Source of the DNA: Salinispira sp.
GTDB lineage: Bacteria > Spirochaetota > Spirochaetia > DSM-27196 > Salinispiraceae
Direction: 5' to 3'
Assembly: GCA_965226555.1 (NCBI GenBank)
Contig: CBDDDG010000001.1
Location: 88,248-152,247 of the forward strand
Length of the DNA stretch: 64,000 nt
The notes under the pieces are model-generated. The model searched no databases and was not told the origin of the DNA. It saw nothing but the letters and a program-made list of their open reading frames with translations. The translations under genes and the position numbers were made by a program. Below, one piece after another: positions 5,059 through 60,192 of the stretch; the stretch's first letter is position 1; every line of letters starts with the position of its first letter.

Positions 5059-5133
5059 GCTGATGTTCCGCCTAATGCGCTTCCCGCTGCGTTGCGCGGG
5101 CGCGGGGAAGCCGGCGGGCGCGGGGAAGTCGGT

Positions 5134-7194
5134 TTATATTTCAAGTGTAGTGGTATTGAGCATGGATTCGCTCAGTTTTTTCTGAGATGGGCTCTGATCG
5201 GCGCGGCGGGCTGCTGCAACCATAAGAATGGCAAGGTCGGAGCTGCGGACGCCGCTGATGCGCCCCGCCTGCCCTATTGAAAGGGGGCGAATGTTCTTGA
5301 ATTTTTCACGGGCCTCATTGGACAAGCCCCGTACTCCATCATAATTGAAGCTCTGAGGAATTTTCATATTCTCCATCTTGGTAAAGCGGAGAATCTGTTC
5401 TTCCTGCCGAGCGACATAGCCTTCGTATTTTATATCAATTTCAACTTGGCGGAGCCATTCAAGGGGATGGTCACTGAGGAGATCAGGATCAATCTGCATA
5501 AGATTTTCAATGGATACGGTCGGATTTTTCAATATCTGCATAAATGTTTTTCCCGGAAGCCGAGCGGAATTGCCGGTGGGCGGTCTGGCAGAATGGCGCG
5601 GGGTGGAAATGCTCATGGCCGACTGCGCTCTGTCGAGTTCATGCGCCGAGAGGCGGCGGTGGGCGAGGAGTTCCTTAATTGCCGCTATGCCCTGTTGCTT
5701 GTCTCTGAATTGTTGCCAGGCGGCAGCGCTGTGCAATCCGATATCCCGCCCGCGGGCGTACAGGCGCATGTCTGAGGAATCGTGGCGGAGGCTGATGCGA
5801 TGTTCCGCGCGTGAAGTGAACATTCGGTAGGGTTCCTTTGTGCCAAGGGTTACCAAATCGTCTATGAGTACGCCGATGTAGGCCTCTGCCCGTGAGAGGA
5901 TGAGAGGGTCGCGTCCTCTCAGGCTCAAGGCGGCGTTAATACCTGCCATAAGCCCCTGGGCGGCGGCTTCTTCATATCCGCTTGTTCCGTTTGTCTGCCC
6001 GGCAATGTACAGGCCCCGGCAGAGTTTTGCCTCAAGACTGGGATACAGCTGGCTCGGATCAATATGGTCGTATTCAACTGCATAGCCCGGGCGCATGATG
6101 ACGGCATGCTCCAGTCCGGGGATGCTGTGAATAAAATGTTCCTGAACATCCTCCGGGAGCGATGTGGAAATACCGTTCAGGTACATCTCCTTTGTTTCAA
6201 GTCCTTCCGGTTCTACAAAAATCTGATGACGTTCCCGCTGGGGAAATTTTACGACCTTATCTTCTATGGACGGACAGTAACGCGGGCCGACTCCTTCTAT
6301 GGCGCCGGAAAAAAGGGGCGAGCGGTGCATGTTTTCGTTAATGATTCGATGTGTTTCAGGAGTTGTGAAGGTGATGTAACAGGGCTCATTCGGGCGGTTG
6401 GGCCGTTCACGGGTGAAGGAGAAGGGGAGCATTTCATCGTCTCCAAACTGCGGCTGCATTTTGCCAAGGTCGAGGCTGTCGCGGTGAACCCGGGCGGGGG
6501 TGCCGGTTTTCATGCGGCCCATGCGGAAGCCGAGCCCGCAGAGGGTGCTTTCCAGACCCCGTGCGGCAGGTTCGCCAATGCGCCCCGCGCTCGCGCTGAA
6601 CTCCCCAATGTGAATTTTACCGTTCAGGAAGGTTCCTGTTGTAAGTACGACCCGGGATGCGCTCATGCGCCGGCCCCGTTCGGTTATAACTCCGCGGATC
6701 GCGCTCCCATCAACATCCTGCTTGCTCCCGCCCGCATTCTGTCCATCAGCATCCTGCTTGCTCCCGCCCGCATTCTGTCCATCAGCATTCTGTCCGTCTG
6801 AATCCAGCAGAAAGTCGATGACCGTATCCTGAAAAAGCTGAAGATTTTTCTCGTTTTCCAGCGTTTTTTTCGCTTCTATCTGGTAGCGCATTTTGTCGGC
6901 CTGCGCCCGCGGCGCCTGCACCGAAGGTCCCTTGCGCCGGTTGAGCACCCGATACTGAATCATGGTCTTGTCGATGAGCCTGCCCATTTCTCCGCCAAGA
7001 GCATCAATTTCCCTGACCATATTGCCCTTCGCGAGTCCGCCAACGGCAGGGTTGCACGATAATTTTCCAATGCAGTCGAGGTTCATGGTAATGAGAAGGG
7101 TGCGGAAGCCCAGCCGTGCCGAAGCAAGCGAGGCTTCAATGCCCGCGTGACCGCCGCCGACAACAATAATGTCAAAATCAGTATTCATCTTCAT
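5134..7194 (-). CDS. mnmG: tRNA uridine 5-carboxymethylaminomethyl modification enzyme MnmG (GidA)
   Basis: 686 aa. FAD motif [14 protein letters not shown], plus [11 protein letters not shown] and [17 protein letters not shown]. Contains a tandem 12-aa insert. Confidence 0.95.
6714..6800. repeat. In-frame 36-bp tandem duplication (2 full copies plus a partial) inside mnmG
   Basis: CATCCTGCTTGCTCCCGCCCGCATTCTGTCCATCAG at 6714-6749 and 6750-6785. Encodes [12 protein letters not shown] twice. Confidence 0.9.
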
Positions 7195-8322: not shown

Positions 8323-11300
8323 TCAGAGCGGAGCGTCCGCGGATGTTCCAGCCGCAATCGTTTTCCGGTATTCTATAGCAAAGTTTTGCATTGATATCCG
8401 CCTAAGCTGCGGGCATTCGCCGGAGAGGGCGTTCAGGGCTTCGGGGTCGGCAAGCACCGTCCGGTGAGCGCCCGGAAGGGCGCGGACAAGTCGTTCGGCA
8501 GCCTGCTGAATGTCGGTTCCGGTGCTTTCAATGAGCCAGCGGCGGCGCTGGCGGCGCAGATCATCGCTTATGCCGCAGGAGAAGCGCCGAAAACTGAGGT
8601 CTCCCTTTTCCGCAGGGGAAAGGGGGTGGAGTTCCCTCCCCGCGAGATAAATTTTTGCGAGATCAAGATCCGCTTGGTTAAGAGGAGCGGATGCGAGTAT
8701 GTTCAGGCTATCGGCACAGGCAGCCCAGCTCCGGCTGATCGCAGGATCACGGTAGGTAGCAAAGCTGAATGTAGCATTGAGGGGATCTGAGTTGCAGAAT
8801 GCGCCGTAGGCGCCGCCTTCCGCGCGGATTTTATCGTGGAAAATTCCGGTGCGCAGAATGTGGCTGAGAATTTGTTCGTGAACCTGTTCCCGTTCGTTCA
8901 TACCAGATGCGGGGATGGCGAGGGCAGTAAAATTGACCTTGGAGGTATATTCTATGCCTTCGGCGCCCTCCTTTGTAGGGGTATCTGTTCTGCGCTGCAT
9001 GTGGTTGTGGTCCTGAATGAGCAGGGGCCGGGTAATGTCCGACAGCGGAGTGAGAGATTTCTGAAAAGGCGCATCGTTAACATTCCCGGTAGTCTTTCTG
9101 TCAGCCCTTCTATCAGTTTTTTTGGCAGTTTTCAGCGCATTCAGGAACTTTGCGAGCTGCGTCCGCAGGCGCGGAGCCTGTTGTTCTTCGCAGACAATAC
9201 TGAGATTAAGCGATTCAGGGCTCCATATCATGCGCATGAGGGCAGAAAGCGCAGCGGGAGAGAGAAAAATATTCCCATTTTTGCGCGCGCCGCCGCCTTC
9301 ATCAGCATTCTCTTTCAGGGAATGAGCATACTGGTGAAGAGTTTCAATAAAGCGGGACTGAATAACCCCCCACCACAGGTCATCACTGAAAGCCGAAGAG
9401 GAAAATCCGCGCCGCGCCCGTATGTCGGCGTAGTTGCTGCCGTGGGGTATTATGTCTGCGCGGAAATCGTTACGATATTCCCGGTATATCTCCCGAATAT
9501 AATGCTGATCGGAAAAATCGGCAGATACCAGAATTTCCTGCAACAGAGCGAGCCCATCTCCGCTCATATCATCCAGAGTTTTGAGGCGGATGCAGATAAA
9601 TTGCCGCTGCCCGGCGCGGTCTGAGCGTCCGGTACTCAGGCCGGTTTGTCCGGTACTCAGGCCGGTCTGCCCTGCGGCGCGCCCGGTGCTGCTAAGGTCT
9701 GTGTGGTGAACAGGACTGAGTGAGAAGCCGCCCGTTTTCAGTCCCCATTCGGTGGACATGTGAGAATACGATTTTGTTTTTGTACCGAGCTGCGGGAGGA
9801 GGTGGGCGAGGAAGGGAATAAATATCTGCAATTCTTTTTCCATGTCTGTGATGTCGAAATACACATTAATGTAGCTTACGCTGTTGGTAAAGATTTTATG
9901 GATATGAAGCGGGCATCCCTGTACATCGCCTTCCTCTCGGGGAATGGTTCGGATATCCCGCGGAATGTCATCCACCGTAAGAACAGGAAATTGTGCGATA
10001 TCTTCAGGCCGGTCTTCCTGCTGCTGGAACTTCTGAAACATTTCGCTTGTCTGCCTGAGAATATCAGGAGCATGAGCGCCGAGCGATTGAACCTTACGGG
10101 ATACGAGCTCGCGTTCAGCCTGTTCCTCGCGGGCGCTCAGTTGGGGGTCGGGACTGACCGTGAGGCGGCTGCGGTGCGGATTGCTCAGGATAGCGCGGAT
10201 TAATTCTCTGAAAAAATCCTGATCGCCGATGTTTTTCAGGTTTTCAAGATGCGCGGTGAACTGCATGGCCAGTCCTGGTGTTTCGCCATGCAGCCAGCGT
10301 TTGAGGGTTCGTAAGAGAAGACGGAGCCCAAAGGGCGCGCCGCCCTTTATTTCCCTGTTATGAAATTCAAAACGCAGAAATGAGGCCCGAATGAGATCGG
10401 GATCAAGCCCTTCGCTAACTACCCGCTCCAGCCCTGAAATAATGAGCTTTTCCACTGCTGCAGCATGTTCTGCCTGTGTTCCCCGAATTCCAATGGTGAA
10501 GACGGGTTGGCGGAAATCGCTTTCAAAACCGGTACTATCGCTCATGTCCTCCCCGAGTTCCGATTCAAGAATGAGTTTCTGAATGGGGCTGGCGGGAGTT
10601 CCGAAGAGGATGTCGCTCAGGAGCTCCATTTTAATGATGTCGGCTCCGCTTTTTGGCTCAGGAATGAGCCAGTTGATATCCACAGACGTTCCATCGTTCT
10701 TTTCTTTGTCTGCCGGATATTTCACTTCGAAGGTCCGGGGATTGTCCCAGCTCTGCTGGAGCGGAACAGTTGCGCTGCTGCGCTTTTTCAGTTCATCTTC
10801 ACTGAATCGTGAAAAAATACATTCATCGAGGAAGGTGAGGTAATCTTCACTTGCTATGTTGCCGTAAAGAAAAATTCGGCAATTTGAGGGATGATAATAT
10901 CTGCGGTGAAAGGCGCAAAATTCCTCATAGCTCAGATCAGGAATGTCAGCAGGATCACCGCCCGAATCGTAGGCGTAGGGGGTATCGGGAAGGATACTCC
11001 GATATGTCCAGTCGCGGGCTATCGATTCCTGGGTTGAATATTGAGCCTTCATCTCATTGTAGACAATACCCGCAATGCGGGCGCCGGCGCTGTCGGCATC
11101 GGTACTGTCGGCATCGGTACTGTGAGCGGCGGCGCTGCCGGCGCTGGCATCCATTTCAAGACGATGCCCCTCCTGGAGAAAATGTTCCTTACGGAGCAGG
11201 GGAAAAAAGACCGCATCGGCATAGATCGACATGAGATTAAACAGATCCTTCCGAACAGGAGAAGCCGCCGGATAGATGGTTTTATCAGGAAAGGTCATCG

Positions 11301-13701: not shown

Positions 13702-14616
13702 AAAAATTTTTGCTCCTGAAAGTTTCCGCTATATGGCAAGCATTTCATATAGTTCTCCATAAATTCCCAATTCGGGTTGCCATCCTCATTATAAGGATAT
13801 TTGCCTTCTCCGTACTCCTTTATTTCCTTCTTTGTAAAACTCTTTGAACCTTTTATTTCAAATAGATCTTTCAAACTAAAATACTGCCACTTATGAAGTG
13901 GAATAATGGGTGAGCCATGCCTTCTTAATGCTGTCCCATTTATTATCATAATTTGCCCTGCCTCCCACTTTCATATTATAAAAACCATCATTTTTCCAGT
14001 AGGCAAAATATGACTTGTACCCTTCTCTGTGTGGTTCCTTGGCTTTCATAACAATTACACACGTTGTTGTACCTGCCTTTCATTAAATTACTTCTCCCAT
14101 CGCCATGAATGTACATATTGGAGCATAGGAGCGAATAAATATCGTGTTGGAATTCAACACCTACTATTTGACTTTGTTTAATGTGCCTTTCTTTTTCTTC
14201 ATTGCCACCAGCATCTCTAATCATGTTTTTCATGGCAGATATTAAGAATCCACCGGTACCCGTGCAGGTATCTAAAACCACAGAAGCCTTGTTCACATAG
14301 GCTATTTCAGAAAATAATTCTGTTATATGGGGAGGAGTCAAAACTATGCCCAAACCTTTGTCGTTATTGGCACATCGTAAAAATTCTATATAAAACTGCC
14401 CGAGGGCATCGAAGTACTTATATTGTTATCATCGCCGCTAACAGCAATGGCAAGAACATCGTATTCTTTAGACAAAAAAGAGGCATAGAGCAAAACCCCA
14501 TCGACAGCATAACTCCCATATTGTTTTCTATTCTGGCTTTCGTGTTGAGTTACACTGGCCTTACATTCAACAACAATGATTACATGTACATTTTCCGTTA
14601 TTCTCTCGTTAGCCAT
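13698..14616 (-). pseudogene. Decayed N6-adenine DNA methyltransferase / R-M subunit (nuclease-like N-domain, SAM domain, specificity-domain remnants) split into three frames
   Basis: ORFs 14386-14616 (VIIVVECK, ExK-type HsdR_N-like), 13988-14353 (TPPHITELF...DTCTGTGGFL motif I, no intact NPPY/F motif) and 13698-13949 (WQYFSLKDLFEIKGS, TRD-like start fused to a conserved end). They are collinear but lie in different frames. Confidence 0.6.
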
Positions 14617-14648
14617 TTATCTCCCTCTGCGCTGAATGGTCCACAAGA

Positions 14649-14726
14649 GAAACTTTTGCAAAGCACAATTTTCAGTAGCAAAACTTTCCAAGAGTATAAC
14701 AGAAACCTTCATTAATGCAAAAGTTT
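14649..14726. repeat. Degenerate copy of the AAACTTTTGC/GCACAATTT palindromic repeat family, 3-prime flank of the SIR2 operon
   Basis: GAGAAACTTTTGCAAAGCACAATTTTCAGTAGCAAAACTTTCC ... AATGCAAAAGTTTTT shares arms with the elements at 18407, 20353, 45694, 49342 and 49905. Confidence 0.6.
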
Positions 14727-15872
14727 TTATCTGAATTTTATTGATGATAAAAACGATGCAGCCGATTCTAATCCTTTCCAGAAAAAGTCATTCTCATTAA
14801 TATTGTGGAAAATAGTAGAAAAGTTCTTCATTAATTGACGCCTGTGATCTTTTTCCTTCTCTTTTTGGATGATTTTAACAGCTGGAGGATTATTTCTCAA
14901 TGATACAGCGCGCAGAAAAATATCGCGAATATCAATATCGGAAACGGGGAGCGAATAGCCAATAAAGGTAATTTTATGAGCATTTTGAATTGCATGGAGT
15001 ACCTCCGTTTGTATCGATTGAAAACTCCCAATAAATTTATGCTTATGAAAAGTTGGCGTTACAATAATCGGCTGCAATGCAACACTGCGCTTCGATAAAA
15101 TTTGTCGATCCTCATCGGATTCAAAAAGAATTGGAATTTCTGTAGATTGCTGAGTATTCTGCCCTGTCGATTCTTGCAAAATTTCTTCTGATTTTTTATC
15201 TGAAAAACAATAGATGCACGTTTCATATTCTAGGGATTGAGAATCTACTCTGAATAAACGCTCGCATGCCGGACACAATCGCCAATCGATGGAGCCATGA
15301 GGCTTGAGTACTGTTATTGGTTTTTGATTCGAATCGGTATCTGTTCCATTTTTCATTACTATTGGGATGGTATCTCCAAAATGAATATCATACTCATAAT
15401 CTTGCTTGAGAAGCATTTCCAATAGCCAATCCCAATTCATGCTAATAAAGGTTACCTGTACATTTTCTTGAATAATCTGACTCATTAATGAATGAAACGG
15501 GCTCGGATCAATATCATGGCTCATCTGTTCTGTTAAGAGAATGAGAATGAGTGAATTTAAAGACGTTTTAATTTCTAATAATTTTTGCGGAGTATAAGTT
15601 CCTAAATTTCTTTCTGCTGCAATTGCTGAATCAATACTGCTATAGACATCTTCCAATAATATCTGCTCCTCAATAGTTTGATTACCGTAAACTGCTCGCA
15701 AAAATTTCACAACATCATGTACTAAAGGAGCAGATTCAATGCTTACGCGTTCACGAAAATCATCTGCCAGAATTTTAGTAAGCAATTGTTCCTGAAGAGG
15801 AAATCCCATCGCGCGGGAGAATCCGGCACCGATAATTACCGTGTGTGTTTTTGCTGGATGAGTTTTATCCAA
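14727..15872 (-). CDS. SIR2-family (SIR2_2-like) protein, predicted NAD-consuming effector
   Basis: 381 aa with a TTG start. Landmarks: VIIGAGFSRAMGFP, FISMNWDWLLE (TTNYD-like, Asn position), VLKPHGSIDW (catalytic His position), CPAC-x19-CIYC zinc ribbon, ITFIGYSLPVSDIDI. Overlaps the upstream gene by 37 nt. Confidence 0.8.
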   Translation of the reverse strand: MDKTHPAKTHTVIIGAGFSRAMGFPLQEQLLTKILADDFRERVSIESAPLVHDVVKFLRAVYGNQTIEEQILLEDVYSSIDSAIAAERNLGTYTPQKLLEIKTSLNSLILILLTEQMSHDIDPSPFHSLMSQIIQENVQVTFISMNWDWLLEMLLKQDYEYDIHFGDTIPIVMKNGTDTDSNQKPITVLKPHGSIDWRLCPACERLFRVDSQSLEYETCIYCFSDKKSEEILQESTGQNTQQSTEIPILFESDEDRQILSKRSVALQPIIVTPTFHKHKFIGSFQSIQTEVLHAIQNAHKITFIGYSLPVSDIDIRDIFLRAVSLRNNPPAVKIIQKEKEKDHRRQLMKNFSTIFHNINENDFFWKGLESAASFLSSIKFR

Positions 15873-17197
15873 ATTTTTAGGTGCTCCGTAGATGTATATT
15901 CAGATTTTTTATTCCATTCAATGAAATCATGCAGGTTTTTCATATTGATCTTATCCTCTACAATCTCAGAAATTTTATTCAACACAAAATGCACTTGATT
16001 ATTCCACAATGTTTCAGATGTCGGCATGAGCTTTTCAGTATTGGGGATTGCTTTTCTCGCCCCATAATGTTCGGCAAAAACTGTTTGAGTAAATTTCCCT
16101 GGGGACAATATTTCATGGCATTTCAAGCAGCCGCACACTTTCTTAGTATAGGCTGAATCAAATTCCTTTCTCATTTGCAGAATTGCATCGACAATTTCAA
16201 ACCTCATTCGCTGTTGCGCGTACGGCAAATAAAATTTGGCAGTCGGTAGTCCTCCTCCAACCGGCAATACGCTGCGATATTCTCCATAACCCGGCCCATG
16301 AGCAATACCATTCAGTCGTTTTTCTTTTTTCAAAAGCGTAGAAAACCCGCCTCCATATAAATTAATGACTTTTTTACCTTTATAGTTAAAATGTATGAGC
16401 AATTCCCGATACGCTTGCAGGTATTTTTCATTTTGAGAAGTCTCGTCAAAATTATTAATCCACAACAGCAATGTGGAAATTTTTGATGTGGAATACACGT
16501 CCTTAATCTGCTTCATTTTATCTGGGTCTAATAAAACACTCTTTTCTACAATTATCTCCAAAGCAGTCTCTATATCGTCATTTCTTGGATTTTTGTCATA
16601 CTCTTGAATAATCGTTTTGTTTATTTTTAACGCTTTGTCAAAATCTGCAAGAGTCATGTATAAGCAGGGCAGTATTATAAATGTTGGTTTAGGAGAAATA
16701 TCGGATTCTTCTTCGTAATCAGAATAACCTTTTTTTTCCATTGCTTCTTGGGACAGGCTGTTTTGAATATAATGTGTTTGAAATTCCAGAACATTTTTCG
16801 TGAGGTCACTAATATTGGCTGCTATATCGGAGAATTGGAGGGCTTGCTTGGTTTTGATAATTTGTTGGCCTAAGCGACCAAAACGCTGCAGTAATTTCTC
16901 CATAGATTTCTTTAGAGTCATACTATCTGTGTTCGCGTAGTACTTCAGTGGGTCTATGGTGAGAACATACGTCATAGGATCAATAAAAAATGAACAGTTT
17001 CCGAATGTTATTGTGAGCATTTTGGCAATTGCCGCCGGCGTATGTACGGCAACATTGCCGTTTATTACGATTCCAGTTTTTTTCTGGGAAATATATTGTT
17101 TTATTAAAGGTTCCAAGAGAATTTTTTTCTCGTTGTGAGAACCGAATCGGATAAACTGTTCAGTTTTCATTATGCTGCCTGCATAATTTAATATCAT
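15836..17197 (-). CDS. Hypothetical protein with a TGT/DpdA-like motif layout (CxCxxC)
   Basis: 453 aa, or 444 aa from the alternative ATG at 17170. Ordered motifs FFIDPMTY, VINLYGGGFSTLL, NGIAHGPGYGEYR, CGCLKC, NNQVHFVLNKI. Overlaps both neighbours. Confidence 0.55.
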   Translation of the reverse strand: MILNYAGSIMKTEQFIRFGSHNEKKILLEPLIKQYISQKKTGIVINGNVAVHTPAAIAKMLTITFGNCSFFIDPMTYVLTIDPLKYYANTDSMTLKKSMEKLLQRFGRLGQQIIKTKQALQFSDIAANISDLTKNVLEFQTHYIQNSLSQEAMEKKGYSDYEEESDISPKPTFIILPCLYMTLADFDKALKINKTIIQEYDKNPRNDDIETALEIIVEKSVLLDPDKMKQIKDVYSTSKISTLLLWINNFDETSQNEKYLQAYRELLIHFNYKGKKVINLYGGGFSTLLKKEKRLNGIAHGPGYGEYRSVLPVGGGLPTAKFYLPYAQQRMRFEIVDAILQMRKEFDSAYTKKVCGCLKCHEILSPGKFTQTVFAEHYGARKAIPNTEKLMPTSETLWNNQVHFVLNKISEIVEDKINMKNLHDFIEWNKKSEYTSTEHLKIWIKLIQQKHTR

Positions 17198-17600
17198 CGA
17201 ATATTTCTAAAAAATTCTTTCTTAAAAATTCATTATGCATTCTTGATTTTTTGTCGACAATCTTTTCTATTTCTTTCTTATCTTGATCCCAAATATAAAA
17301 TGAGAGATCAAATTTGTTTATTTTTTCTTCAATTGTTGTTGTATTGCGCGGGACAGTTGCCTTCGGCATAATGAGAATTGCCTTGTCGACAACACAGCTG
17401 TGATCCTTCAATTGTTCAATAGCTCTCTTCCAATTCTTTAGTTTTACTTCAATAGAAATTAAGGAATTGTCCTTTTGCAAAAATATGTCTACAATACGCG
17501 ACATGAGGGGAATTTCCCTATAAACCTTGTACGTTTTTCCGTCCAACGGTTCATGGGTAAAATACCTAAGCAATTCCGTTTGAACTTTTGCCTCCGTCAC
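17160..17600 (-). CDS. Small PD-(D/E)xK (restriction-endonuclease-fold) protein
   Basis: IVDIFLQKDNSLISIEVKLKNWKRAIEQLKDH is a D...ExK...Q pattern. A GTG at 17600 overlaps the upstream TGA (GTGA), giving 146 aa. The 203-aa ORF-track version (start 17771) would overlap the upstream gene by 175 nt. Confidence 0.55.
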   Translation of the reverse strand: MTEAKVQTELLRYFTHEPLDGKTYKVYREIPLMSRIVDIFLQKDNSLISIEVKLKNWKRAIEQLKDHSCVVDKAILIMPKATVPRNTTTIEEKINKFDLSFYIWDQDKKEIEKIVDKKSRMHNEFLRKNFLEIFDDIKLCRQHNEN

Positions 17601-18217
17601 AACGTATATTCTCCCAATACTTGGTTTTTTATTAATGAATTTTTCGTAGAATCGGGATATCGCGTGTAAACATAGTGCAGAATTGTCTGTAAGGTTTTGT
17701 GTATAATGCTTGTTTTGAATCGTACGAGAATTTCCCGTTGGGGTTCGGTTAAATTTGTCCATGAAAACCATTTCTGAGGCGAGGTAATAACTTTCTTTCC
17801 TTCTCCGCTAAGCGTATATTTTTCAATTTCATGCGTATAATCATTAATCCCTAAATTATCATTTTCAAAACCCCTCATATTCGATTCCCAGACATCATCG
17901 GCTCTACCTATTTGAGAATAAGAAATGCTTATAGTAAGCATATGTTTCGCGTTTAAAAAATCCACTGCTTCCAACACGTCTGTGCTGAATGGTCCAAAAT
18001 TATAGGCTTCAAAATCAAAAGAAGAAATATTGTCAGACGGATTCAGGAATTTCTGCTGTACTTCCTGCTCAAAAAGGTACATCATCTTCATTAATCGCGT
18101 TCTGCCAGTAATTGGATATGCGATATTTTGATCCAGATCGCCGTATAAGGTGAGATGCACCGGCGCATAAAGCAGCAGGTGTAAAATATGAACGCATTTA
18201 TAATTTTTCTTCGGCAT
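17597..18217 (-). CDS. SocA/Panacea (DUF4065)-like protein, first gene of the SIR2 operon
   Basis: 206 aa. GRTRLMKMMYLFEQE...FDFEAYNFGPFSTDVLEAVDFL matches my recollection of the DUF4065 core (KLQKLLY...W.YGP). The C-terminal YTLSGEGKK looks wHTH-like. Confidence 0.5.
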   Translation of the reverse strand: MPKKNYKCVHILHLLLYAPVHLTLYGDLDQNIAYPITGRTRLMKMMYLFEQEVQQKFLNPSDNISSFDFEAYNFGPFSTDVLEAVDFLNAKHMLTISISYSQIGRADDVWESNMRGFENDNLGINDYTHEIEKYTLSGEGKKVITSPQKWFSWTNLTEPQREILVRFKTSIIHKTLQTILHYVYTRYPDSTKNSLIKNQVLGEYTL

Positions 18218-18223
18218 GACAAG

Positions 18224-18251
18224 AGTATATCAGAAACCTTTATTTATGCAA
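18224..18251 (-). promoter_or_regulatory. Sigma70-like promoter of the SIR2 operon (near-leaderless)
   Basis: Minus strand reads TTGCAT (18251-18246), a 16-nt spacer, TATACT (18229-18224), then 6 nt (CTTGTC) to the ATG at 18217. No Shine-Dalgarno sequence is present. Confidence 0.4.
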
Positions 18252-18406
18252 ACCTTTTTGATACAGTCTTCTACCCACATAGCATTCACCCCGCATTCAA
18301 GAGCAATCCGACCTTACCATATTGTATTCATCATTAACAATGATAGCACTGGGACGATATCGCCATACATGCCTTTTCTTTTGTTTTCCAAATGTATATA
18401 CTGCGA

Positions 18407-18475
18407 TAAAACTTTGCTACTGAAAACTTTGTTACTGGAAATTGTGCAAGCACAATTTTCCAATGCAAACGTTTC
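18407..18475. repeat. Palindromic repeat-family copy, 5-prime flank of the SIR2 operon
   Basis: GATAAAACTTTGCTACTGAAAACTTTGTTACTGGAAATTGTGCAAGCACAATTTTCCAATGCAAACGTTTC. Confidence 0.7.
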
Positions 18476-18499
18476 TATTACAAAGAATAGGAGATATAT

Positions 18500-20352: not shown

Positions 20353-20407
20353 ACAAAGTTTTGCTACTGGAAATTGTGCACGCACAATTTTCCAATGCAA
20401 AAGTTTC
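20353..20407. repeat. Single-hairpin copy of the palindromic repeat family between two co-oriented genes
   Basis: ACAAAGTTTTGCTACTGGAAATTGTGCACGCACAATTTTCCAATGCAAAAGTTTC, immediately followed by the RBS AAGGAGG. Confidence 0.75.
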
Positions 20408-20424
20408 TAAGGAGGAAAAATTTT

Positions 20425-44959: not shown

Positions 44960-46128
44960 TTAATGCGATCCGTTCCGCACTGTCCGCATTTCCTCATCGC
45001 TCAGCCCGGTAATTCTCTGAACAGCCTCTGTCGACAAGCCTTCCAAAAACATACTGCGGGCGTTTTTTCTCCGCTCCTCAATATGCCCCTCAGCGCGACC
45101 TTTCAGAATACCCTTTTCCATACCCTTCGCAATGCCCTCAGCCCGGCCCTTTGTGATACCCTGCTCAAGACCCTCAACACGGCCTTTCAGAATACCCTTC
45201 TCCATGCCTTCCCTGACGAAGGCGTTGGTTATGTTATATGTCCGCATACTGTTTTCTCCTTCAGGATATAGTTTCCTGTTAATTTTCTCAAACTGTTCAT
45301 ACAGTCCCAAGTCCTTCAGGTAGCCCAGCACACTCTCTGCCAGATCAGTAAAGTCTTGTGAAGACAGACCGTTCAGGAGCTGCGCAATTTCTTTCAGCCC
45401 CTCAGTGTCCATTTCATTATCTCGCATTATATACCACAATGCAGTCGATGTATATCGGTTTTCATCGGAACGCCATGCCAACTGTTTCTTTGTCATTCTA
45501 CAAAGATCGCGCACAATGTACGACACTTTCACCCTGACATCTACCGTGCCTTCAATCATAGATTCGAAAGCAGCATTTCCATGCGAACTGTAAAATGTGA
45601 GTGGGAGGTTCCATTCCTTTTTTCCATGGTAGAGCAGCAGTATATAGATAGCATCATTTTCATTGTACACATTGCTGTTTCTGAGGGCATGCTACAGAAA
45701 CTTTTGCTACTGGAAATTGTGCAGAGCACAATTTCCAGTAGCAAAAGTTTCAAATTCGGAATGCTTTCTTTGTGCTTAGCATTCTCCTATTTCATAGAAA
45801 GTTTTGCCTGTGGCAAAACTTTGTGATAATTATCGATTTGAGTGAGCGCATGTTTATGCTGGTAGCTTTTGTGTTCAATAATGAACAGGGCTTTCCGGTC
45901 GGGGTCTGACAGGAAGGGGGCGCTGACAACGAGATCGCAGTGAATGTTCTTTTTTCCCGCAATGTAGCTGGGGTTTTCAATGCGGATTTTGTCCATGTCC
46001 AGCTTGGCAAGAGTTGTATCCTCACAGAACAGCCGCAGCAGGTCGAGAATCATACGGGGGGTTCTGTAGTAGGCGATCTTGAAGGCTATGTCGTGGATGT
46101 TGCCTGTGCTATGGGATGATTTTTTCAT
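44960..46128 (-). pseudogene. Rpn-family (PDDEXK_2/YhgA-like) nuclease paralogue A, interrupted by a 131-bp element
   Basis: The N-part 45787-46128 and C-part 44960-45670 are collinear with intact paralogues. The break falls between DNYQ and HALRNS. Confidence 0.85.
45694..45824 (+). mobile_element. MITE-like hairpin-rich element (131 bp) inserted in Rpn paralogue A
   Basis: The intact paralogue reads GAGGGCATGCT|GATAATTATCG. Here 131 bp are inserted at that junction. They contain a 26-bp-stem hairpin (GAAACTTTTGCTACTGGAAATTGTGC-AGA-GCACAATTTCCAGTAGCAAAAGTTTC), GAATGCT...AGCATTC, and AAAGTTTTGCC-TGT-GGCAAAACTTT. Confidence 0.85.
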
Positions 46129-46394
46129 ATTCTTCCTCCTACATCTGTGACGGGAGAAAAACGAGATATGAATGACAAAATGAGAAATTTTTGTGAAATT
46201 TTGTAATTATTTTTTTAGAAGGGTATGTTCCCGGAAACATCCGAGCATGATGAACAGGCAGTTCAGGATCTGGCGCGAGAGTTTATGCAGACAGGAGCTG
46301 CAACGCGGGTCGCGCTGCAACTCCTGTTTAATTTAATCTGTTCCAGACGCATGGGTGAGCCGGATGCGTGGTCGAGCAGGCCGAGCGGCGATAA

Positions 46395-47420
46395 TTAATG
46401 CGATCCATTCCGCACTGTCCGCATTTCCTCATCGCTCAGCCCGGTAATTCTCTGAACGGCCTCTGTCGACAAGCCTTCCAAAAACATACTGCGGGCGTTT
46501 TTTCTCCGCTCCTCAATATGCCCCTCAGCACGACCTGTTCGCAGACCTTTCAGAATGCCTTTCTCCATGCCCTGCTCAAGACCCTCAGCGCGACCTTTCA
46601 GAATACCCTTTTCCATACCTTTCTCCATACCTTCCCTGACGAAGGCGTTGGTTATGTTATATGTCCGCATACTGTTTTCTCCTTCAGGGTACAGTTCCCT
46701 GTTAATTTTCTCAAACTGTTCATACAGTCCCAAATCTTTTAGATAACCCAGCACACTCTCTGCCAGATCAGTAAAGTCTTGTGAAGACAGACCGTTCAGG
46801 AGCTGCGCAATCTCTTTCAGCCCCTCAGCATCAATCTCATTATCTCGCATTATATACCACAACGCAGTCGATGTATATCGTTTTTCATCAGAACGCCATG
46901 CCAACTGTTTCTTTGTCATTCTACAAAGATCGCGCACAATGTACGACACTTTCACCCTGACATCTACCGTGCCTTCAATCATAGATTCGAAAGCAGCATT
47001 TCCATGCGAACTGTAAAATTCGCGCTGGAGGTTCCATTCCTTTTTTCCATGGTAGAGCAGCAGTATATAGATAGCATCTTTTTCATTGTACACATTGCTG
47101 TTTCTGAGGGCATGCTGATAATTATCGATTTGAGTGAGCGCATGTTTATGCTGGTAGCTTTTGTGTTCAATAATGAACAGGGCTTTCCGGTCGGGGTCTG
47201 ATAAGAAGGGGGCGCTGACAACGAGATCGCAGTGAAGGTTCTTTTTTCCCGCAATGTAGCTGGGGTTTTCAATGCGGATTTTGTCCATGTCCAGCTTGGA
47301 AAGCGTTGTATCCTCACAGAACAGCCGCAGCAGGTCGGGAATCATACGGGGGGTTCTGTAGTAGGCGATCTTGAAGGCTATGTCGTGGATATGGCCTGTG
47401 CTGTGGGATGATTTTTTCAT
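46395..47420 (-). CDS. Rpn-family recombination-promoting nuclease/putative transposase paralogue B (intact)
   Basis: 341 aa from MKKSSHSTGHIHD, with AGGAGGAATGTTT before the ATG. CDLVVSAP...ALFIIEHKSYQHK is a D...ExK pattern. C-terminal (x-x-G-x-x-K-G)n repeats, then LSTEAVQRITGLSDEEM. Confidence 0.8.
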   Translation of the reverse strand: MKKSSHSTGHIHDIAFKIAYYRTPRMIPDLLRLFCEDTTLSKLDMDKIRIENPSYIAGKKNLHCDLVVSAPFLSDPDRKALFIIEHKSYQHKHALTQIDNYQHALRNSNVYNEKDAIYILLLYHGKKEWNLQREFYSSHGNAAFESMIEGTVDVRVKVSYIVRDLCRMTKKQLAWRSDEKRYTSTALWYIMRDNEIDAEGLKEIAQLLNGLSSQDFTDLAESVLGYLKDLGLYEQFEKINRELYPEGENSMRTYNITNAFVREGMEKGMEKGILKGRAEGLEQGMEKGILKGLRTGRAEGHIEERRKNARSMFLEGLSTEAVQRITGLSDEEMRTVRNGSH

Positions 47421-47678
47421 AAACATTCCTCCTACATCTGTGACGGGAGAAAAACGAGATATGAATGACAAAATAAGAAATTTTTGTGAAATTTTGTAAT
47501 TATTTTTTTTAGAAGGGTATGTTCCCGGAAACATCCGAGCATGATGAACAGGCAGTTCAGGATCTGGCGCGAGAGTTTATGCAGACAGAGCTGCAACGCG
47601 GGTCGCGCTGCAACTCCTGTTTAATTTAATCTGTTCCAGACGCATGGGTGAGCCGGATGCGTGGTCGAGCGCCAATTA

Positions 47679-48656
47679 TTAATGCGATCCGTTCCGCACT
47701 GTCCGCATTTCCTCATCGCTCAGCCCGGTAACCTTCCGAACGTCATCTGCTGAAAGTCCTATGGAAAACATACTGCGGGCGTTTTTTCTCCGCTCCTCAA
47801 TATGCCCCTCAGCGCGACCTTTCAGAATGCCCTTCTCCATTCCTTTCAGAATACCTTTCGCAATGCCTTCCCTGACGAAGGCGTTGGTTATGTTATATGT
47901 CCGCATACTGTTTTCTCCTTCAGGGTACAGTTCCCTGTTAATTTTCTCAAACTGTTCATACAGTCCCAAATCTTTTAGATAACCCAGCACACTCTCTGCC
48001 AGATCAGTAAAGTCTTGTGAAGACAGACCGTTCAGGAGCTGCGCAATCTCTTTCAGCCCCTCAGCATCCATCTCATTATCTCGCATTATATACCACAACG
48101 CAGTCGATGTATATCGTTTTTCATCGGAACGCCATGCCAACTGCTTCTTTGTCATTCTACAAAGATCGCGCACAATGTACGACACTTTCACCTTGACATC
48201 TACCGTGCCTTCGGTAAGGGATTCGGAAGCAGCATTTCCATGTGAACTGTAAAATGTGAGTGGGAGGTTCCATTCCTTTTTTCCATGGTAGAGCAGCAGT
48301 ATATAGATAGCATCATTTTCATTGTACACATTGCTGTTTCTGAGGGCATATTGATAGTTATCGATTTGAATGAGAGCATGTTTATGCTGGTAGCTTTTGT
48401 GCTCAATAATGAATAGAGCCTTCCGCTCGGGGTCTGACAGGAAGGGGGCGCTGACAACGAGATCGCAGTGAAGATTCTTTTTTCCTGCAATGTAGCTGGG
48501 GGTTTCAATGCGGATTTTGTCCATGTCCAGCTTGGCAAGAGTTGTATCCTCACAGAACAGGCGCAGCAGGTCGGGAATCATACGGGGGGTTCTGTAGTAG
48601 GCGATCTTGAAGGCTATGTCGTGGATATGGCCTGTGCTCTGGGATGATTTTTTCAT
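47679..48656 (-). CDS. Rpn-family nuclease paralogue C (intact)
   Basis: 325 aa. Same architecture as B, with a divergent C-terminal tail (SIGLSADDVRKVTGLSDEEM). Confidence 0.8.
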   Translation of the reverse strand: MKKSSQSTGHIHDIAFKIAYYRTPRMIPDLLRLFCEDTTLAKLDMDKIRIETPSYIAGKKNLHCDLVVSAPFLSDPERKALFIIEHKSYQHKHALIQIDNYQYALRNSNVYNENDAIYILLLYHGKKEWNLPLTFYSSHGNAASESLTEGTVDVKVKVSYIVRDLCRMTKKQLAWRSDEKRYTSTALWYIMRDNEMDAEGLKEIAQLLNGLSSQDFTDLAESVLGYLKDLGLYEQFEKINRELYPEGENSMRTYNITNAFVREGIAKGILKGMEKGILKGRAEGHIEERRKNARSMFSIGLSADDVRKVTGLSDEEMRTVRNGSH

Positions 48657-49341
48657 AAACATTCCTCCTACATCTGTGACAGGAGAAAAACGAGATATGA
48701 ATGACAAAATGAGAAATTTTTTCAAAAAAGTGAAAGTTTCTTCCTGAAGAGGTAAGTTCCCATACCATATAGACGGGCTACATTGAATGGTAAATGATAC
48801 AATGAGAAATTTTTGTGAAATTTTGTAATTATTTTTTTTAGAAGGGTATGTTCCCGGAAACATCCGAGCATGATGAACAGGCAGTTCAGGATCTGGCGCG
48901 AGAGTTTATGCAGACAGAGCTGCAACGCGGGTCGCGCTGCAACTCCTGTTTAATTTAATCTGTTCCAGACGCATGGGTGAGCCGGATGCGTGGTCGAGCA
49001 GGCCGAGCGCCAATTATTAATGCGATCCGTTCCGCACTGTCCGCATTTCCTCATCGCTCAGCCCGGTAATTCTCTGAACGGCCTCTGTCGACAAGCCTTC
49101 CAAAAACATACTGCGGGCGTTTTTTCTCCGCTCCTCAATATGCCCCTCAGCGCGACCTGTTCGCAGTCCTTCCTGCCGACCTGTCTGCAATCCTGTCTGA
49201 AGTCCTTCCTGCCGACCCTTTGTGATACCCTGCTCAAGACCTTCAACACGACCTTTCAGAATACCCTTCTCCATACCCTTCGCAATGCCTTCCCTCACGA
49301 AGGCGTTGGTTATGTTATATGTCCGCATACTGTTTTCTCCT

Positions 49342-49473
49342 ACTGAAACTTTTGCATTGGAAAATTGTGCTTCGCACAATTTCCAGTAGCAAAAGTTTCA
49401 CATTTGGCAGACCTCGTTGCGCTTGGCATTCTCTCATTTTGTAGAAAGTTTTGCCTGCGGCAAAACTTTGTCT
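49342..49473 (+). mobile_element. MITE-like element copy (about 132 bp), second insertion site in paralogue D
   Basis: TTTTCTCCT|ACTGAAACTTTTGCATTGGAAAATTGTGCTTCGCACAATTTCCAGTAGCAAAAGTTTC...GGCAAAACTTTGTCT|AGGATAT. Intact paralogues read TTTTCTCCTTCAGG(A/G)TA. Boundaries are uncertain by about 2 nt. Confidence 0.75.
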
Positions 49474-49904
49474 AGGATATAATTTCCTGTTAATTTTCTC
49501 AAACTGTTCATACAGTCCCAAGTCCTTCAGGTAGCCCAGCACACTCTCTGCCAGATCAGTAAAGTCTTGTGAAGACAGACCGTTCAGGAGCTGCGCAATT
49601 TCTTTCAGCCCCTCAGTGTCCATTTCATTATCTCGCATTATATACCACAATGCAGTCGATGTATATCGTTTTTCATCAGAACGCCATGCCAACTGTTTCT
49701 TTGTCATTCTACAAAGATCGCGCACAATGTACGACACTTTCACCCTGACATCTACCGTGCCTTCAATCATAGATTCGAAAGCAGCATTTCCATGCGAACT
49801 GTAAAATGTGAGTGGGAGGTTCCATTCCTTTTTTCCATGGTAGAGCAGCAGTATATAGATAGCATCTTTTTCATTGTACACATTGCTGTTTCTGAGGGCA
49901 TGCT

Positions 49905-50034
49905 ACAGAAACTTTTGCATTGGAAAATTGTGCAAGCACAATTTCCAGTAGCAAAAGTTTCAAATTCGGAATGCTTTCTTTGTGCTTAGCATTCTCCTAT
50001 TTCATAGAAAGTTTTGCCTGTGGCAAAACTTTGT
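49905..50034 (+). mobile_element. MITE-like element copy (130 bp) at the same codon position as in paralogue A
   Basis: GAGGGCATGCT|ACAGAAACTTTTGCATTGGAAAATTGTGCAAGCACAATTTCCAG...GGCAAAACTTTGT|GATAATTATCG. Confidence 0.85.
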
Positions 50035-50697
50035 GATAATTATCGATTTGAGTGAGAGCATGTTTATGCAGGTAGCTTTTATGCTCAATAATGAATAGAG
50101 CTTTTCGGTCGGGGTCTGACAGGAAGGGGGCGCTGACAACGAGATCGCAGTGAATGTTCTTTTTTCCCGCAATGTAGCTGGGGTTTTCAATGCGGATTTT
50201 GTCCATGTCCAGCTTGGCAAGAGTTGTATCCTCACAGAACAGGCGCAGCAGGTCGGGAATCATACGGGGGGTTCTGTAGTAGGCGATCTTGAAGGCTATG
50301 TCGTGGATATGGCCTGTGCTGTGGGATGATTTTTTCATATTCTTCCTCCTACATCTGTGACGGGAGAAAAACGAGATATGAATGACAAAATGAGAAATTT
50401 TTTCAAAAAAGTGAAAGTTTCTTCCTGAAGAGGTAAGTTCCCATACCATATAGACGGGCTACATTGAATGGTAAATGATACAATGAGAAATTTTTGTGAA
50501 ATTTTGTAATTATTTTTTTTAGAAGGGTATGTTCCCGGAAACATCCGAGCATGATGAACAGGCAGTTCAGGATCTGGCGCGAGAGTTTATGCAGACAGAG
50601 CTGCAACGCGGGTCGCGCTGCAACTCCTGTTTAATTTAATCTGTTCCAGACGCATGGGTGAGCCGGATGCGTGGTCGAGCAGGCCGAGCGGCGATAA

Positions 50698-51669
50698 TTA
50701 ATGCGATCCATTCCGCACTGTCCGCATTTCCTCATCGCTCAGCCCGGTAATTCTCTGAACAGCCTCGGTCGACAACCCTTCCAAAAACATACTGCGGGCG
50801 TTTTTTCTCCGCTCCTCAATATGCCCCTCAGCGCGACCTTTCAGAATACCCTTTTCCATACCTTTCTCCATACCTTCCCTGACGAAGGCGTTGGTTATGT
50901 TATATGTCCGCATACTGTTTTCTCCTTCAGGGTACAGTTCCCTGTTAATTTTCTCAAACTGTTCATACAGTTTTGGATCTAGATCTTTGATATAGCCTAA
51001 CACACTTTCTGCCAGATCAGTAAAGTCTTGTGATGACAGACCGTTCAGGAGCTGCGCAATCTCTTTCAGCCCCTCAGTGTCCATCTCATTATCTCGCATT
51101 ATATACCACAACGCAGTCGATGTATATCGTTTTTCATCGGAACGCCATGCCAACTGCTTTTTGTCCATTCGCCTCAGATCGCGCACAATGTACGACACTT
51201 TCACCCTGACATCTACCGTGCCTTCAATCATAGATTCGAAAGCAGCATTTCCATGCGAACTATAAAATTCGCGCTGGAGGTTCCATTCCTTTTTTCCATG
51301 GTAGAGCAGCAGTATATAGATAGCATCATTTTCATTGTACACATTGCTGTTTCTGAGGGCATATTGATAGTTATCGATTTGAATGAGAGCATGTTTATGC
51401 TGGTAGCTTTTGTGTTCAATAATAAAAAGAGCTTTCCGCTCGGGGTCTGACAGGAAGGGGGCGCTGACAACGAGATCGCAGTGAAGATTCTTTTTTCCCG
51501 CAATGTAGCTGGGGTTTTCAATGCGGATTTTGTCCATGTCCAGCTTGGCAAGAGTTGTATCCTCACAGAACAGCCGCAGCAGGTCGAGAATCATACGGGG
51601 GGTTCTGTAGTAGGCGATCTTGAAGGCTATGTCGTGGATGTTGCCTGTGCTATGGGATGATTTTTTCAT
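50698..51669 (-). CDS. Rpn-family nuclease paralogue E (intact)
   Basis: 323 aa from MKKSSHSTGNIHD. It has the shortest C-terminal repeat tract (GMEKGMEKGILKGRAEG). Confidence 0.8.
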   Translation of the reverse strand: MKKSSHSTGNIHDIAFKIAYYRTPRMILDLLRLFCEDTTLAKLDMDKIRIENPSYIAGKKNLHCDLVVSAPFLSDPERKALFIIEHKSYQHKHALIQIDNYQYALRNSNVYNENDAIYILLLYHGKKEWNLQREFYSSHGNAAFESMIEGTVDVRVKVSYIVRDLRRMDKKQLAWRSDEKRYTSTALWYIMRDNEMDTEGLKEIAQLLNGLSSQDFTDLAESVLGYIKDLDPKLYEQFEKINRELYPEGENSMRTYNITNAFVREGMEKGMEKGILKGRAEGHIEERRKNARSMFLEGLSTEAVQRITGLSDEEMRTVRNGSH

Positions 51670-51769
51670 AAATACTCCTCCTACATCTGTGACAGGAGAA
51701 AAACGAGATATGAATGACAAAATGAGAAATTTTTTCAAAAAAGTGAAAGGGTGGATTTTGTTTTGAAAT

Positions 51770-53021
51770 TGGGATATAAACCTTTGGACAGACCCCTCCT
51801 CCCCAGTGTAAAACGAAGGTTATTCGTATACACTGGGGGTTGTATAAAACATAAAAGGAGGGAAACAGTGAACAGTAGTATCACATATTCTCAGTATCAT
51901 CTCAAGTCTCGGAAGTATCAGGCGGCTTCGATGTATGATTGGCGGTTGCGGATGGTTCGGTATGCCCAGGAGCATTCGATCAAGGCGGCTGCTCGGGAGT
52001 TCGAGGTGTCGCGCAACACGGTGCGGCGGTGGGTTCGGCGCTTTGAATCCGGCGAGGGGCTTGAAGACAAGAAGCGGGGCACGACCAATCATCCGATGAA
52101 GATGAAATTCGGGCACCGGTGTCATCTCGAGAGTCTTGTCCAGACCAAGAATCGGAATCACAACAAAATCATTGGAACTCAGGTGCAAAAGCAGTTGCAG
52201 ACGGAAGTTGGCGGGAAGTACAGCCTGCCGACGATTATCAAGACGCTAAAGCAGATAGGGGCGCGGAAAACAAAGAAGCCGAAGGCGCTACCCAAGAGAG
52301 ATTTGCGGGAGGTAACCGACAGGATGAAGTTCGGCGAGTGCATTCAGATTGATATCAAGTATCTGACGGACATTCCCGCTATGCGGTTTTCTCAGAAGTG
52401 TTTAGACGTTCCGAAGTACCAGATAACCGCCCGGGATCGGGCGACAGGGGCTCTGTGGTACGCCTTCGCCAATGAGAAGAGCAGTATGGTAACAACCTTG
52501 TTCGCCGAGTACCTGCTGGAGCACCTGCGGAATCGCGGCGGAGACCTTGTCAACGGCATAACGGTTCAGACCGATAACGGGGCAGAGTTCACCGTTCGGC
52601 ATCTGAGCAAGACCCGAACGTCGGGGTTTGAGCAGGCGCTCATACAGGCGGGTGTCGAGTATCGGCGTATTCCGCCCGGGCATTGCACATGGAACAGTTC
52701 TGTCGAGTCCTCGCACCGGCTCATTGAGGATGAGTTCTACAGTCAGGTGATGAATCCAAAGCTCAATGAGTTTCTTAAGGAAGCCGAGGAGTATCAGATA
52801 GATTTCAATTACCGGCGGTTCAACACCTACCGCAAAGGGACTCCGCTGGATCTTTTGAGGCAGCGGAATACCAATGTGGATAGTGATATTCTCCGGCTCA
52901 AGCCGATCATAATGGAGCAACGGTTCACACGGCCGACGCTTGAGCGATGGAGGGCTTGGCACTCGGAAGAAATGATCGCATAATAGGTCAAAGTGGGGTC
53001 TGTTCAAACCTTAATATCCCA
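51770..53021 (+). mobile_element. IS481-like insertion sequence (~1.25 kb) with ~27-bp imperfect terminal IRs
   Basis: Left TGGGATATAAACCTTTGGACAGACCCC. Reverse complement of right TGGGATATTAAGGTTTGAACAGACCCC. A single transposase ORF lies inside. Confidence 0.75.
51868..52983 (+). CDS. DDE (rve integrase-core) transposase, IS481-family-like
   Basis: GTG 51868 lies 5 nt after AAGGAGGG. N-terminal HTH (AAAREFEVSRNTVRRWVRRF), IQIDIKYL, VQTDNGAEF, and a catalytic-Glu region (SSVESSHRLIEDEF). Confidence 0.75.
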   Translation: MNSSITYSQYHLKSRKYQAASMYDWRLRMVRYAQEHSIKAAAREFEVSRNTVRRWVRRFESGEGLEDKKRGTTNHPMKMKFGHRCHLESLVQTKNRNHNKIIGTQVQKQLQTEVGGKYSLPTIIKTLKQIGARKTKKPKALPKRDLREVTDRMKFGECIQIDIKYLTDIPAMRFSQKCLDVPKYQITARDRATGALWYAFANEKSSMVTTLFAEYLLEHLRNRGGDLVNGITVQTDNGAEFTVRHLSKTRTSGFEQALIQAGVEYRRIPPGHCTWNSSVESSHRLIEDEFYSQVMNPKLNEFLKEAEEYQIDFNYRRFNTYRKGTPLDLLRQRNTNVDSDILRLKPIIMEQRFTRPTLERWRAWHSEEMIA

Positions 53022-53159
53022 CTTTTATAAATGCACAATACTTTCGAAATGTTTGCCCCATGGCAGTAAGTCACATTCCTCGTAATTGCGAATGTGGCCG
53101 ATCCCATGGGCCTTTTTTTATAACAAGAAGAAATTTTTTGCTTTATGGGAGGTATCATT

Positions 53160-60018: not shown

Positions 60019-60192
60019 CCGCAGCTTTGCCCGCCGCAGATGCGCGCGCTGTGAACAGGAGCTTTGCTGACCGCAACTTTGCAAAAGTTTCTGATATTGT
60101 GTAATATATTGAAAAATGACGGTGGAAATGTGAGAATGTATTGATGTTTCCCTGAAACATCTTATCAAAACTAACTTTTTTAGGAGAGTAAA

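Follow-up and report, generated by a model that had tools for sequence, protein, structure and literature searches.

A lineage-specific family of gene-less hairpin elements that interrupts Rpn genes in a Salinispira-like spirochaete

Two of the five tandem Rpn genes in a 64,000-nucleotide (nt) stretch of a Salinispira sp. genome (hereafter the window; GenBank assembly GCA_965226555.1, contig CBDDDG010000001.1, positions 88,248 to 152,247) are broken by a hairpin-rich sequence of about 131 nt, which raises the question of whether this sequence is mobile DNA and, if so, how it moves and where it lands. The comparison of broken and intact genes, together with copies elsewhere in this and other samples, answers the first part: the element is, or was, mobile DNA. 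Its three full copies, e1 to e3, occupy two sites in the Rpn array, whose five units, all on the minus strand, were aligned to define the junctions:

44960-46128, minus strand: Rpn paralogue A, broken at site 1 by e1
46395-47423, minus strand: Rpn paralogue B, intact, with empty sites 1 and 2
47679-48659, minus strand: Rpn paralogue C, intact, with empty sites
49017-50338, minus strand: Rpn paralogue D, broken at site 1 (e3) and at site 2 (e2)
50698-51669, minus strand: Rpn paralogue E, intact, with empty sites and a match to PF04754
45693-45823, plus strand: e1, full element of 131 nt in site 1 of paralogue A, placed by the five-paralogue alignment
49341 to about 49472, plus strand: e2, full element of about 132 nt in site 2 of paralogue D (TCTCC/TTCAGG; here and below a slash between bases or residues marks the junction)
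49904-50033, plus strand: e3, full element of 130 nt in site 1 of paralogue D, with a left arm of the majority Y type (see below)

This alignment bears out three inserts that an earlier note on the same DNA had read from the letters alone, the ends of e1 being movable by one ambiguous T, so that 45694-45824 is equally valid. In its empty form site 1 reads GAGGGCATGC/TGATAA (GCATGC/TGATAA), and both e1 and e3 lie in it; the insertion is a clean 131 nt without target duplication (at most 1 nt, the ambiguous T), and a cave-metagenome contig that skips exactly these 131 nt (45692 to 45824) carries the same site empty. The empty D-type form of site 2, TCTCCT/TCAGGATATAATTTCCTGT, is likewise present in a cave run. 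The inserts thus have empty counterparts both in the paralogues and in other samples, and with lengths of 130-132 nt (131 is not a multiple of 3) they break a reading frame whose intact form matches Rpn proteins along its full length. The converse reading, in which the inserts are ancestral sequence lost from the intact paralogues, has nothing for it beyond the formal possibility and is refuted by the alignment, the empty sites and the dispersal; against it stand that frame-breaking length, the end-to-end match of the intact form to Rpn proteins and more than 100 contigs on which the same sequence has intergenic flanks unrelated to each other.

The three full copies in two of the five genes represent two insertion events. 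Next to site 1, A and D resemble each other more than any other pair does (98.8% identity over 429 nt, 100% upstream), so that e1 and e3, which are the same in sequence from the loop onward, most likely go back to a single insertion, duplicated together with the gene that contains it. The site-2 allele, recognizable from its protein junction (...LYP/RQSFA...), has a wider distribution: at least 10 paralogues carry it, located on six or more contigs and in two assemblies, further carriers being proteins P0011-P0018, P0020 and P0021, and one carrier having an intact N-terminus. These carriers do not cluster by similarity of the host gene, and paralogue A, the nearest relative of D, lacks the insertion, hence gene conversion or repeated targeting of site 2 must be involved. 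The earlier impression of an element caught in the act is weakened accordingly, both Rpn alleles being old enough for copies on several contigs. The Rpn family itself looks strongly multi-copy: in three sequencing runs from the assembly's own sample, where single-copy sequence of the window has a depth of about 7.5, the summed depth of the family is about 450-1,430.

The position of e2 within its gene bears on what the insertion may do to the protein products. Rpn genes have been described to hold an internal antitoxin frame, RpnS, in which four-residue repeats begin 13 residues past an internal Met (PMC10400941). In the window the repeats of the RpnS frame also begin 13 residues after the internal Met, which fits this rule, and a ribosome-binding site (RBS) can be predicted in front of that Met:

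49326-49340, minus strand: predicted internal RBS (GGAG) and ATG of the RpnS antitoxin frame, GGAGAAAACAGTATG; e2 ends 4 nt upstream of the GGAG

The GGAG lies 8 nt before the ATG and is already present in the empty sites of the paralogues and of the cave strain. The insertion is likely to destroy the RpnL nuclease frame and to leave the RpnS frame intact. The C-terminal thirds of the Rpn genes (44960-51669) differ from paralogue to paralogue by an in-frame number of four-residue repeats (MEKG/ILKG/RAEG/LEQG and others). As a separate observation on the array, an extra segment of 93 nt stands upstream of C and of D (48745-48838 and 50426-50519), which duplicates part of the upstream region (repeat family D12).

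Four parts make up a full copy of the element, namely a TAC(A/T)G leader, hairpin 1 (55 nt), a central stretch that varies and measures about 45 nt, and hairpin 3 (25 nt):

45693-45823, plus strand: e1, with leader TACAG, hairpin 1 at 45697-45751 (a perfect 26-bp stem), central palindrome at 45759-45784 and hairpin 3 at 45797-45823
49341 to about 49472, plus strand: e2, with 5' flank ending ..GTTTTCTCC/, hairpin 1 at 49345-49399, a central region of a different subfamily and hairpin 3 at 49444-49470

Hairpin 1 begins 4-5 nt from the 5' junction and consists of an outer stem, GAAACTTTTGC pairing with GCAAAAGTTTC, and of inner arms whose internal loop and bulge are conserved; hairpin 3, GAAAGTTTTGCC-TGY-GGCAAAACTTTG, ends 0-2 nt from the 3' junction. 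Folded as DNA, the element reaches -45.4 kcal/mol (z = -10.4), and its core palindrome has no match in 100 shuffles. Much of this structure is built from one 10-mer, AAA[C/G]TTTTGC, which is found 19 times in the window, where 0.65 occurrences would be expected, and four times per full element in alternating orientation, where it makes up the outer stem of hairpin 1 and the entire stem of hairpin 3. The outermost pair of these motifs forms an imperfect (9/10) subterminal inverted repeat, with the motif also present internally, so that the earlier statement that the element has no terminal inverted repeats (TIRs) was not fully accurate; its statement that the element encodes no open reading frame (ORF) holds, every frame being short or closed.

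The long perfect hairpin and the central palindrome that had been taken as typical are each confined to some of the copies. The inner arms of hairpin 1 occur in two variants, X and Y, and the imperfect Y-X' combination, with its conserved loop and bulge, is common to e2, e3 and the solo hairpins described below, i.e., four independent copies share this asymmetric hairpin. It is in e1 alone that hairpin 1 is perfect, and the changes there are clustered in the left arm (45697-45751 compared with 49908-49961) and exactly complement the right arm, which suggests that the left arm of e1 was converted to the complement of the right by an event templated within one strand, on a hairpin or cruciform, in vivo. 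The central region falls into two subfamilies, and the palindrome GAATGCT..AGCATTC is present in e1 and e3 but not in e2.

Beyond the window the element proved to be widespread; confinement to the window had been named in advance as grounds for giving up the idea of a mobile element. In the three runs of the assembly's own sample it lies on 119-156 different contigs, with a summed depth of about 1,300-2,800; this suggests of the order of 10^2 copies (about a hundred or more) in the Salinispira-like genome, a figure that may be inflated because summed contig depth may count related strains. In two cave-metagenome runs from another study, 79-86 contigs each carry the element, and depth falls about 10-fold exactly at 45825/45826, on passing into the Rpn flank, therefore most copies lie outside Rpn genes. 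Within the assembly, element-derived peptides are encoded on at least five other contigs (593,920, 161,297, 79,120, 13,147 and 7,572 nt). As a proxy for the contexts of the copies, these peptides gave two matches in one search and the Rpn site-2 alleles alone in another, and with so few matches the copies must be mostly outside called ORFs. One of the peptide sequences, P0010, corresponds to a mosaic cluster adjoining another copy of the insertion sequence (IS) described below, in which a hairpin 1, an insert and a 3' module are followed by two more hairpin-3 units. Searches further afield were negative: the exact 26-mer has no match in JGI metagenome contigs, where the degenerate palindrome pattern retrieved 27 loci, all unrelated; nothing similar was seen among viral contigs, plasmids and phages; and the element has no match in Rfam at family thresholds. 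The family is lineage-specific, found in this genome and in the related cave population; the names borne by near-identical proteins mark the lineage as Salinispira-like.

Shorter relatives are present in the window as well. A profile built from the three full copies and run over the window with nhmmer returned matches at 14646, 18421 and 20355 (E = 3e-6 to 2e-13), which agrees with the relatives previously noticed at 14649, 18407 and 20353, and the short motif noticed near 60075 is a degenerate relic of hairpin 1:

20355-20408, minus strand: 54-nt solo hairpin, 2 nt upstream of the AGGAGG-N9-ATG of the gene at 20416
18411-18487, minus strand: solo hairpin unit, preceded by a partial tandem piece, upstream of an aldo/keto reductase (AKR) gene
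14646-14727, plus strand: degenerate copy, with the left inner arm deleted and a further motif pair following, upstream of a minus-strand ORF starting at 14616
60063-60093, minus strand: degenerate hairpin 1 relic, upstream of a gene at 60193 (p < 0.005 by local alignment, compared with shuffles)

In the element's orientation the 3' end of the solo at 20355 is GCAAAACTTTGT, identical to the terminal 12-mer of the full element; because the solos end in this 12-mer, the 54-nt forms are probably internal deletions between two GCAAAA repeats that kept both termini. Within the organism's own runs the 54-nt form has sharp boundaries and turns up with 16-18 different flanks. At the AKR site the cave strain carries, in place of the solo, a short palindrome of 24 nt, CATTTTGCAGAATGCAGAAATTTC, the contig joining 18410 to 18488 through these 24 letters. 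In metagenome contigs, the 24-nt palindrome AAATTGTGC-N3-GCACAATTTCCAA is also carried by a different repeat of about 95 nt (L042:162-255 and L046:10410-10504) from an organism of 60-65% GC; the likeness goes no further than this palindrome and is probably a coincidence. A further 29 nt at 8361-8389, inside the 3' end of an M16 peptidase gene, resemble the linker and the left arm of hairpin 3 (p ~0.005).

When the junctions of the eight loci that could be resolved to the base are written in the element's own orientation, (T)CTCC stands directly 5' of the element in four of them. These are site 2 (GTTTTCTCC/TACTG), the solo at 20355 (TTCCTCC/TTAG), the AKR site in both strains (ATCTCC/TA..) and a further single-copy locus together with its cave orthologue (TTTCTCC/TACTG; in reverse complement GGAGAAAGAGTT-ATGATG). 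The chance of finding CTCC at three or more of five loci is 6e-7 in random sequence and 3e-4 with a 3% prior. CTCC is the complement of the Shine-Dalgarno core, and all six loci in the window lie antisense to the local gene. The earlier proposal of an oriented insertion next to a short motif, '..CT', can thus be refined to (T)CTCC/T, but the word is missing at site 1 (GCATGC/) and at one further locus (ATCAT/), and the two degenerate copies also lack it.

No target duplication, a fixed orientation and a flanking word together form the signature of single-strand transposition of the IS200/IS605 or RAYT type, the former of which the earlier note had guessed. The explanation we favour, at about even confidence, is that of a lineage-specific, gene-less and modular hairpin family that is moved in trans by an enzyme of the IS200/IS605 or RAYT type and often lands next to RBSs. 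A hairpin-recognizing enzyme of the HUH/Y1 class acting on single-stranded DNA (ssDNA) would insert the element 3' of a short target word; at site 2 such an insertion would have struck the RBS of the internal RpnS antitoxin, and the two Rpn insertion alleles would then have spread among the paralogues by duplication, gene conversion or repeated targeting. Like the element, the palindrome-associated transposable elements (PATEs) of the IS200/IS605 family and the repetitive extragenic palindromes (REPs) and REPINs mobilized by RAYTs are gene-less hairpins that are inserted without target duplication and, as seems to hold for the element too, in a fixed orientation next to a short word, that reach tens to hundreds of copies, and that occur as short solos beside longer composites and mosaic clusters, as in P0010. 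In contrast to PATEs and REPINs, the hairpins of the element are AT-rich and nearly terminal; the GTAG word characteristic of REPs lies inside its X' arm, and no such word is conserved on the 5' side of the hairpin; neither arm of hairpin 1 is palindromic in itself, as both would be in a REPIN made of two inverted REPs; and the putative target word complements the Shine-Dalgarno sequence.

Several observations weigh against this explanation. No Y1/HUH enzyme, tyrosine recombinase or serine recombinase was found among the 29 window ORFs scanned. The feet of the hairpins are only 0-5 nt away from the ends of the element, a shorter distance than IS608-type elements have. A bias towards one replication strand is usual for IS200/IS605 elements, which are tied to the lagging-strand template, whereas here GC skew is positive across the whole window, i.e., the window is a single replichore, and copies lie on both strands, albeit at six loci only; of the proposed likeness to IS200/IS605, the oriented insertion and the lack of duplication are supported, the adjoining motif is present at four of the eight loci, and the distribution of copies over the strands does not conform. 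The site-2 junction is slightly irregular, TTC having been replaced to give ..CTTTGTCTAGG, and the same junction recurs in a cave-metagenome contig. The missing CTCC at site 1 and at ATCAT/ counts on the same side, as does the pooled flank consensus of many solos, which is just AT-rich; the placement of the element beside RBSs could reflect selection instead of targeting; and the estimate of copy number carries the strain inflation mentioned above. As to the location of the window, gidB and gidA lie at 4249-7194 and ssb near the left end, so that it may be near a replication origin, and no switch in GC skew occurs inside it.

The regular position next to RBSs also invites an explanation by function, in which the element would be a cis-acting 5'-leader, as RNA or DNA, that affects translation, mRNA stability or termination, with CTCC adjacency maintained by selection; this would be compatible with mobility and is a serious rival, though it appears unlikely to us. 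A GGAG or AGGAG follows 1-25 nt downstream of each of the three solos in the window, of e2 and of the extra locus, the orientation relative to genes is consistent at all six loci, and hairpin 1 scores as terminator-like on the gene-sense strand. Precedents are found in the TD-1 and TD-2 RNA motifs of Treponema denticola, of which TD-1 usually lies just 5' of genes (PMC1950547), and in the Neisseria REP2 and Borrelia IR-A/IR-B repeats, which stand directly upstream of genes (PMC3184786). TD-1 and TD-2 share with the element the spirochaete phylum, dozens of copies and modular stems, and the TD-2 hairpin GAGUUUUGCC-guaA-GGCAAAACUC has the same 9-bp stem core as hairpin 3. However, e1 scores 24.3 bits against the TD-2 model (RF03162), below the gathering score of 48.7, Rpn sequence beside the element being what the model's third stem was aligned to, and e2 has no match, so that the likeness to TD-2 is a lead and not a membership; moreover, the TD motifs were proposed as structured RNAs without evidence of insertion, unlike the element. 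REP2 and IR-A/IR-B resemble the element in their size (120-150 nt), in lacking classical TIRs, in having two internal stem-loops and in their position immediately upstream of genes, but they carry their own promoter, RBS and ATG, whereas the element adjoins an RBS instead of supplying it, since the GGAG pre-exists in the empty site. A sigma-54 or sigma-70 promoter was not found within or beside the hairpins of the solos examined, the same element lies inside coding sequence at site 1 with no RBS near, the pooled flanks of most solos lack GGAG, and the downstream genes are functionally unrelated, all of which argues against a leader function. A search for RNA sequencing runs of the organism retrieved none. 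Combining mobility and position, the family may home to the Shine-Dalgarno complement 3' of (T)CTCC, antisense to genes, and thus accumulate in one orientation at RBSs, including that of RpnS in many Rpn paralogues; TD-1 and TD-2 would then be relatives within one class of spirochaete elements, and their 5' position would bear witness to the choice of target and not to regulation. This is a tentative and somewhat doubtful proposal.

Two further explanations keep the mobility of the element and change the agent. A conventional MITE (miniature inverted-repeat transposable element), cut and pasted by a DDE transposase that recognizes the subterminal inverted AAA[C/G]TTTTGC, would account for the 9/10 repeat near both ends and for a small, AT-rich, non-coding and multi-copy sequence, and MITEs are abundant in spirochaetes, where bursts of this type are known (PMC11602168). 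MITEs and ERIC-type repeats (Correia, RUP, ERIC) are also similar in size (about 100-150 nt), in their potential for long hairpins and in being mostly intergenic and sometimes gene-disrupting, but they have true TIRs and target duplications (TA for Correia and RUP), and neither is seen at site 1, where at most 1 nt could be duplicated and where the paralogue alignment rules out a TA or CTA duplication. Furthermore, the motif is also internal and therefore defines hairpins and not ends, strict orientation to a flanking word is unexpected for a TIR-symmetric MITE, and the sole IS in the window has unrelated TIRs, which makes the MITE explanation improbable. A structure-specific nuclease, either of the GIY-YIG Ssn type or the co-amplified Rpn PD-(D/E)XK nuclease, could alternatively act on the hairpins, which would spread by break-and-repair or gene conversion. 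Hairpin repeats in hundreds of copies tied to a dedicated ssDNA nuclease are documented in the NTS/SRM and Ssn system (PMC11893778), whose oriented repeats gather around genes and are processed in single-stranded form, as may be the case here, and such an origin would fit the multi-copy Rpn genes in the same samples, the scatter of the site-2 allele over paralogues irrespective of their relatedness and the conversion of the e1 left arm into a perfect complement of the right. Yet the sequences are unrelated (the element lacks ATTCCC..GGGAAT), the window shows no GIY-YIG gene, PMC10400941 reports no evidence of Rpn proteins acting as transposases, and most copies lie outside Rpn genes, hence we hold a nuclease-driven origin to be quite unlikely.

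Two other mobile features of the surroundings were considered as sources or borders. The only IS of the window, apart from the truncated end mentioned below, is inserted upstream of paralogue E:

51761-53030: IS of about 1,270 bp with 36-nt TIRs and a transposase (helix-turn-helix and rve, i.e., DDE) at 51868-52983

The TIRs of this IS are unrelated to the element ends, and it was rejected as the element's parent; element-like remnants at the IS ends are not significant. Its depth suggests about 13-22 copies, and a truncated 5' end of it lies at 1811-1890. A four-gene SIR2 island (14599-18274) has no counterpart in the related cave population (depth 0), and the 182 nt that precede it (14417-14598) are 100% identical in that population with unrelated sequence on both sides, as if they were themselves mobile. 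The hairpins near this island are not integron-like borders, the homology to the cave population breaking at 14598 and 18275 and not at the hairpins, and an integron attC or cassette boundary was dismissed as well, given that the core RYYYAAC...GTTRRRY is unmatched and no integrase is present in the window.

The element represents a new family within a kind of small mobile repeat that is already known from bacteria, and it adds an undescribed repeat family with clean insertion evidence from a little-studied spirochaete lineage. In the multi-copy Rpn toxin-antitoxin genes it illustrates a route of decay, in which insertions probably remove the nuclease frame and leave the antitoxin frame intact, and in which the interrupted allele is spread over many paralogues. 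If the preference for (T)CTCC holds genome-wide, this would be a small element that targets the RBS itself and is well placed to rewire translation, and it would offer a mechanistic reason for the position of some 'structured RNA motifs' immediately 5' of genes.

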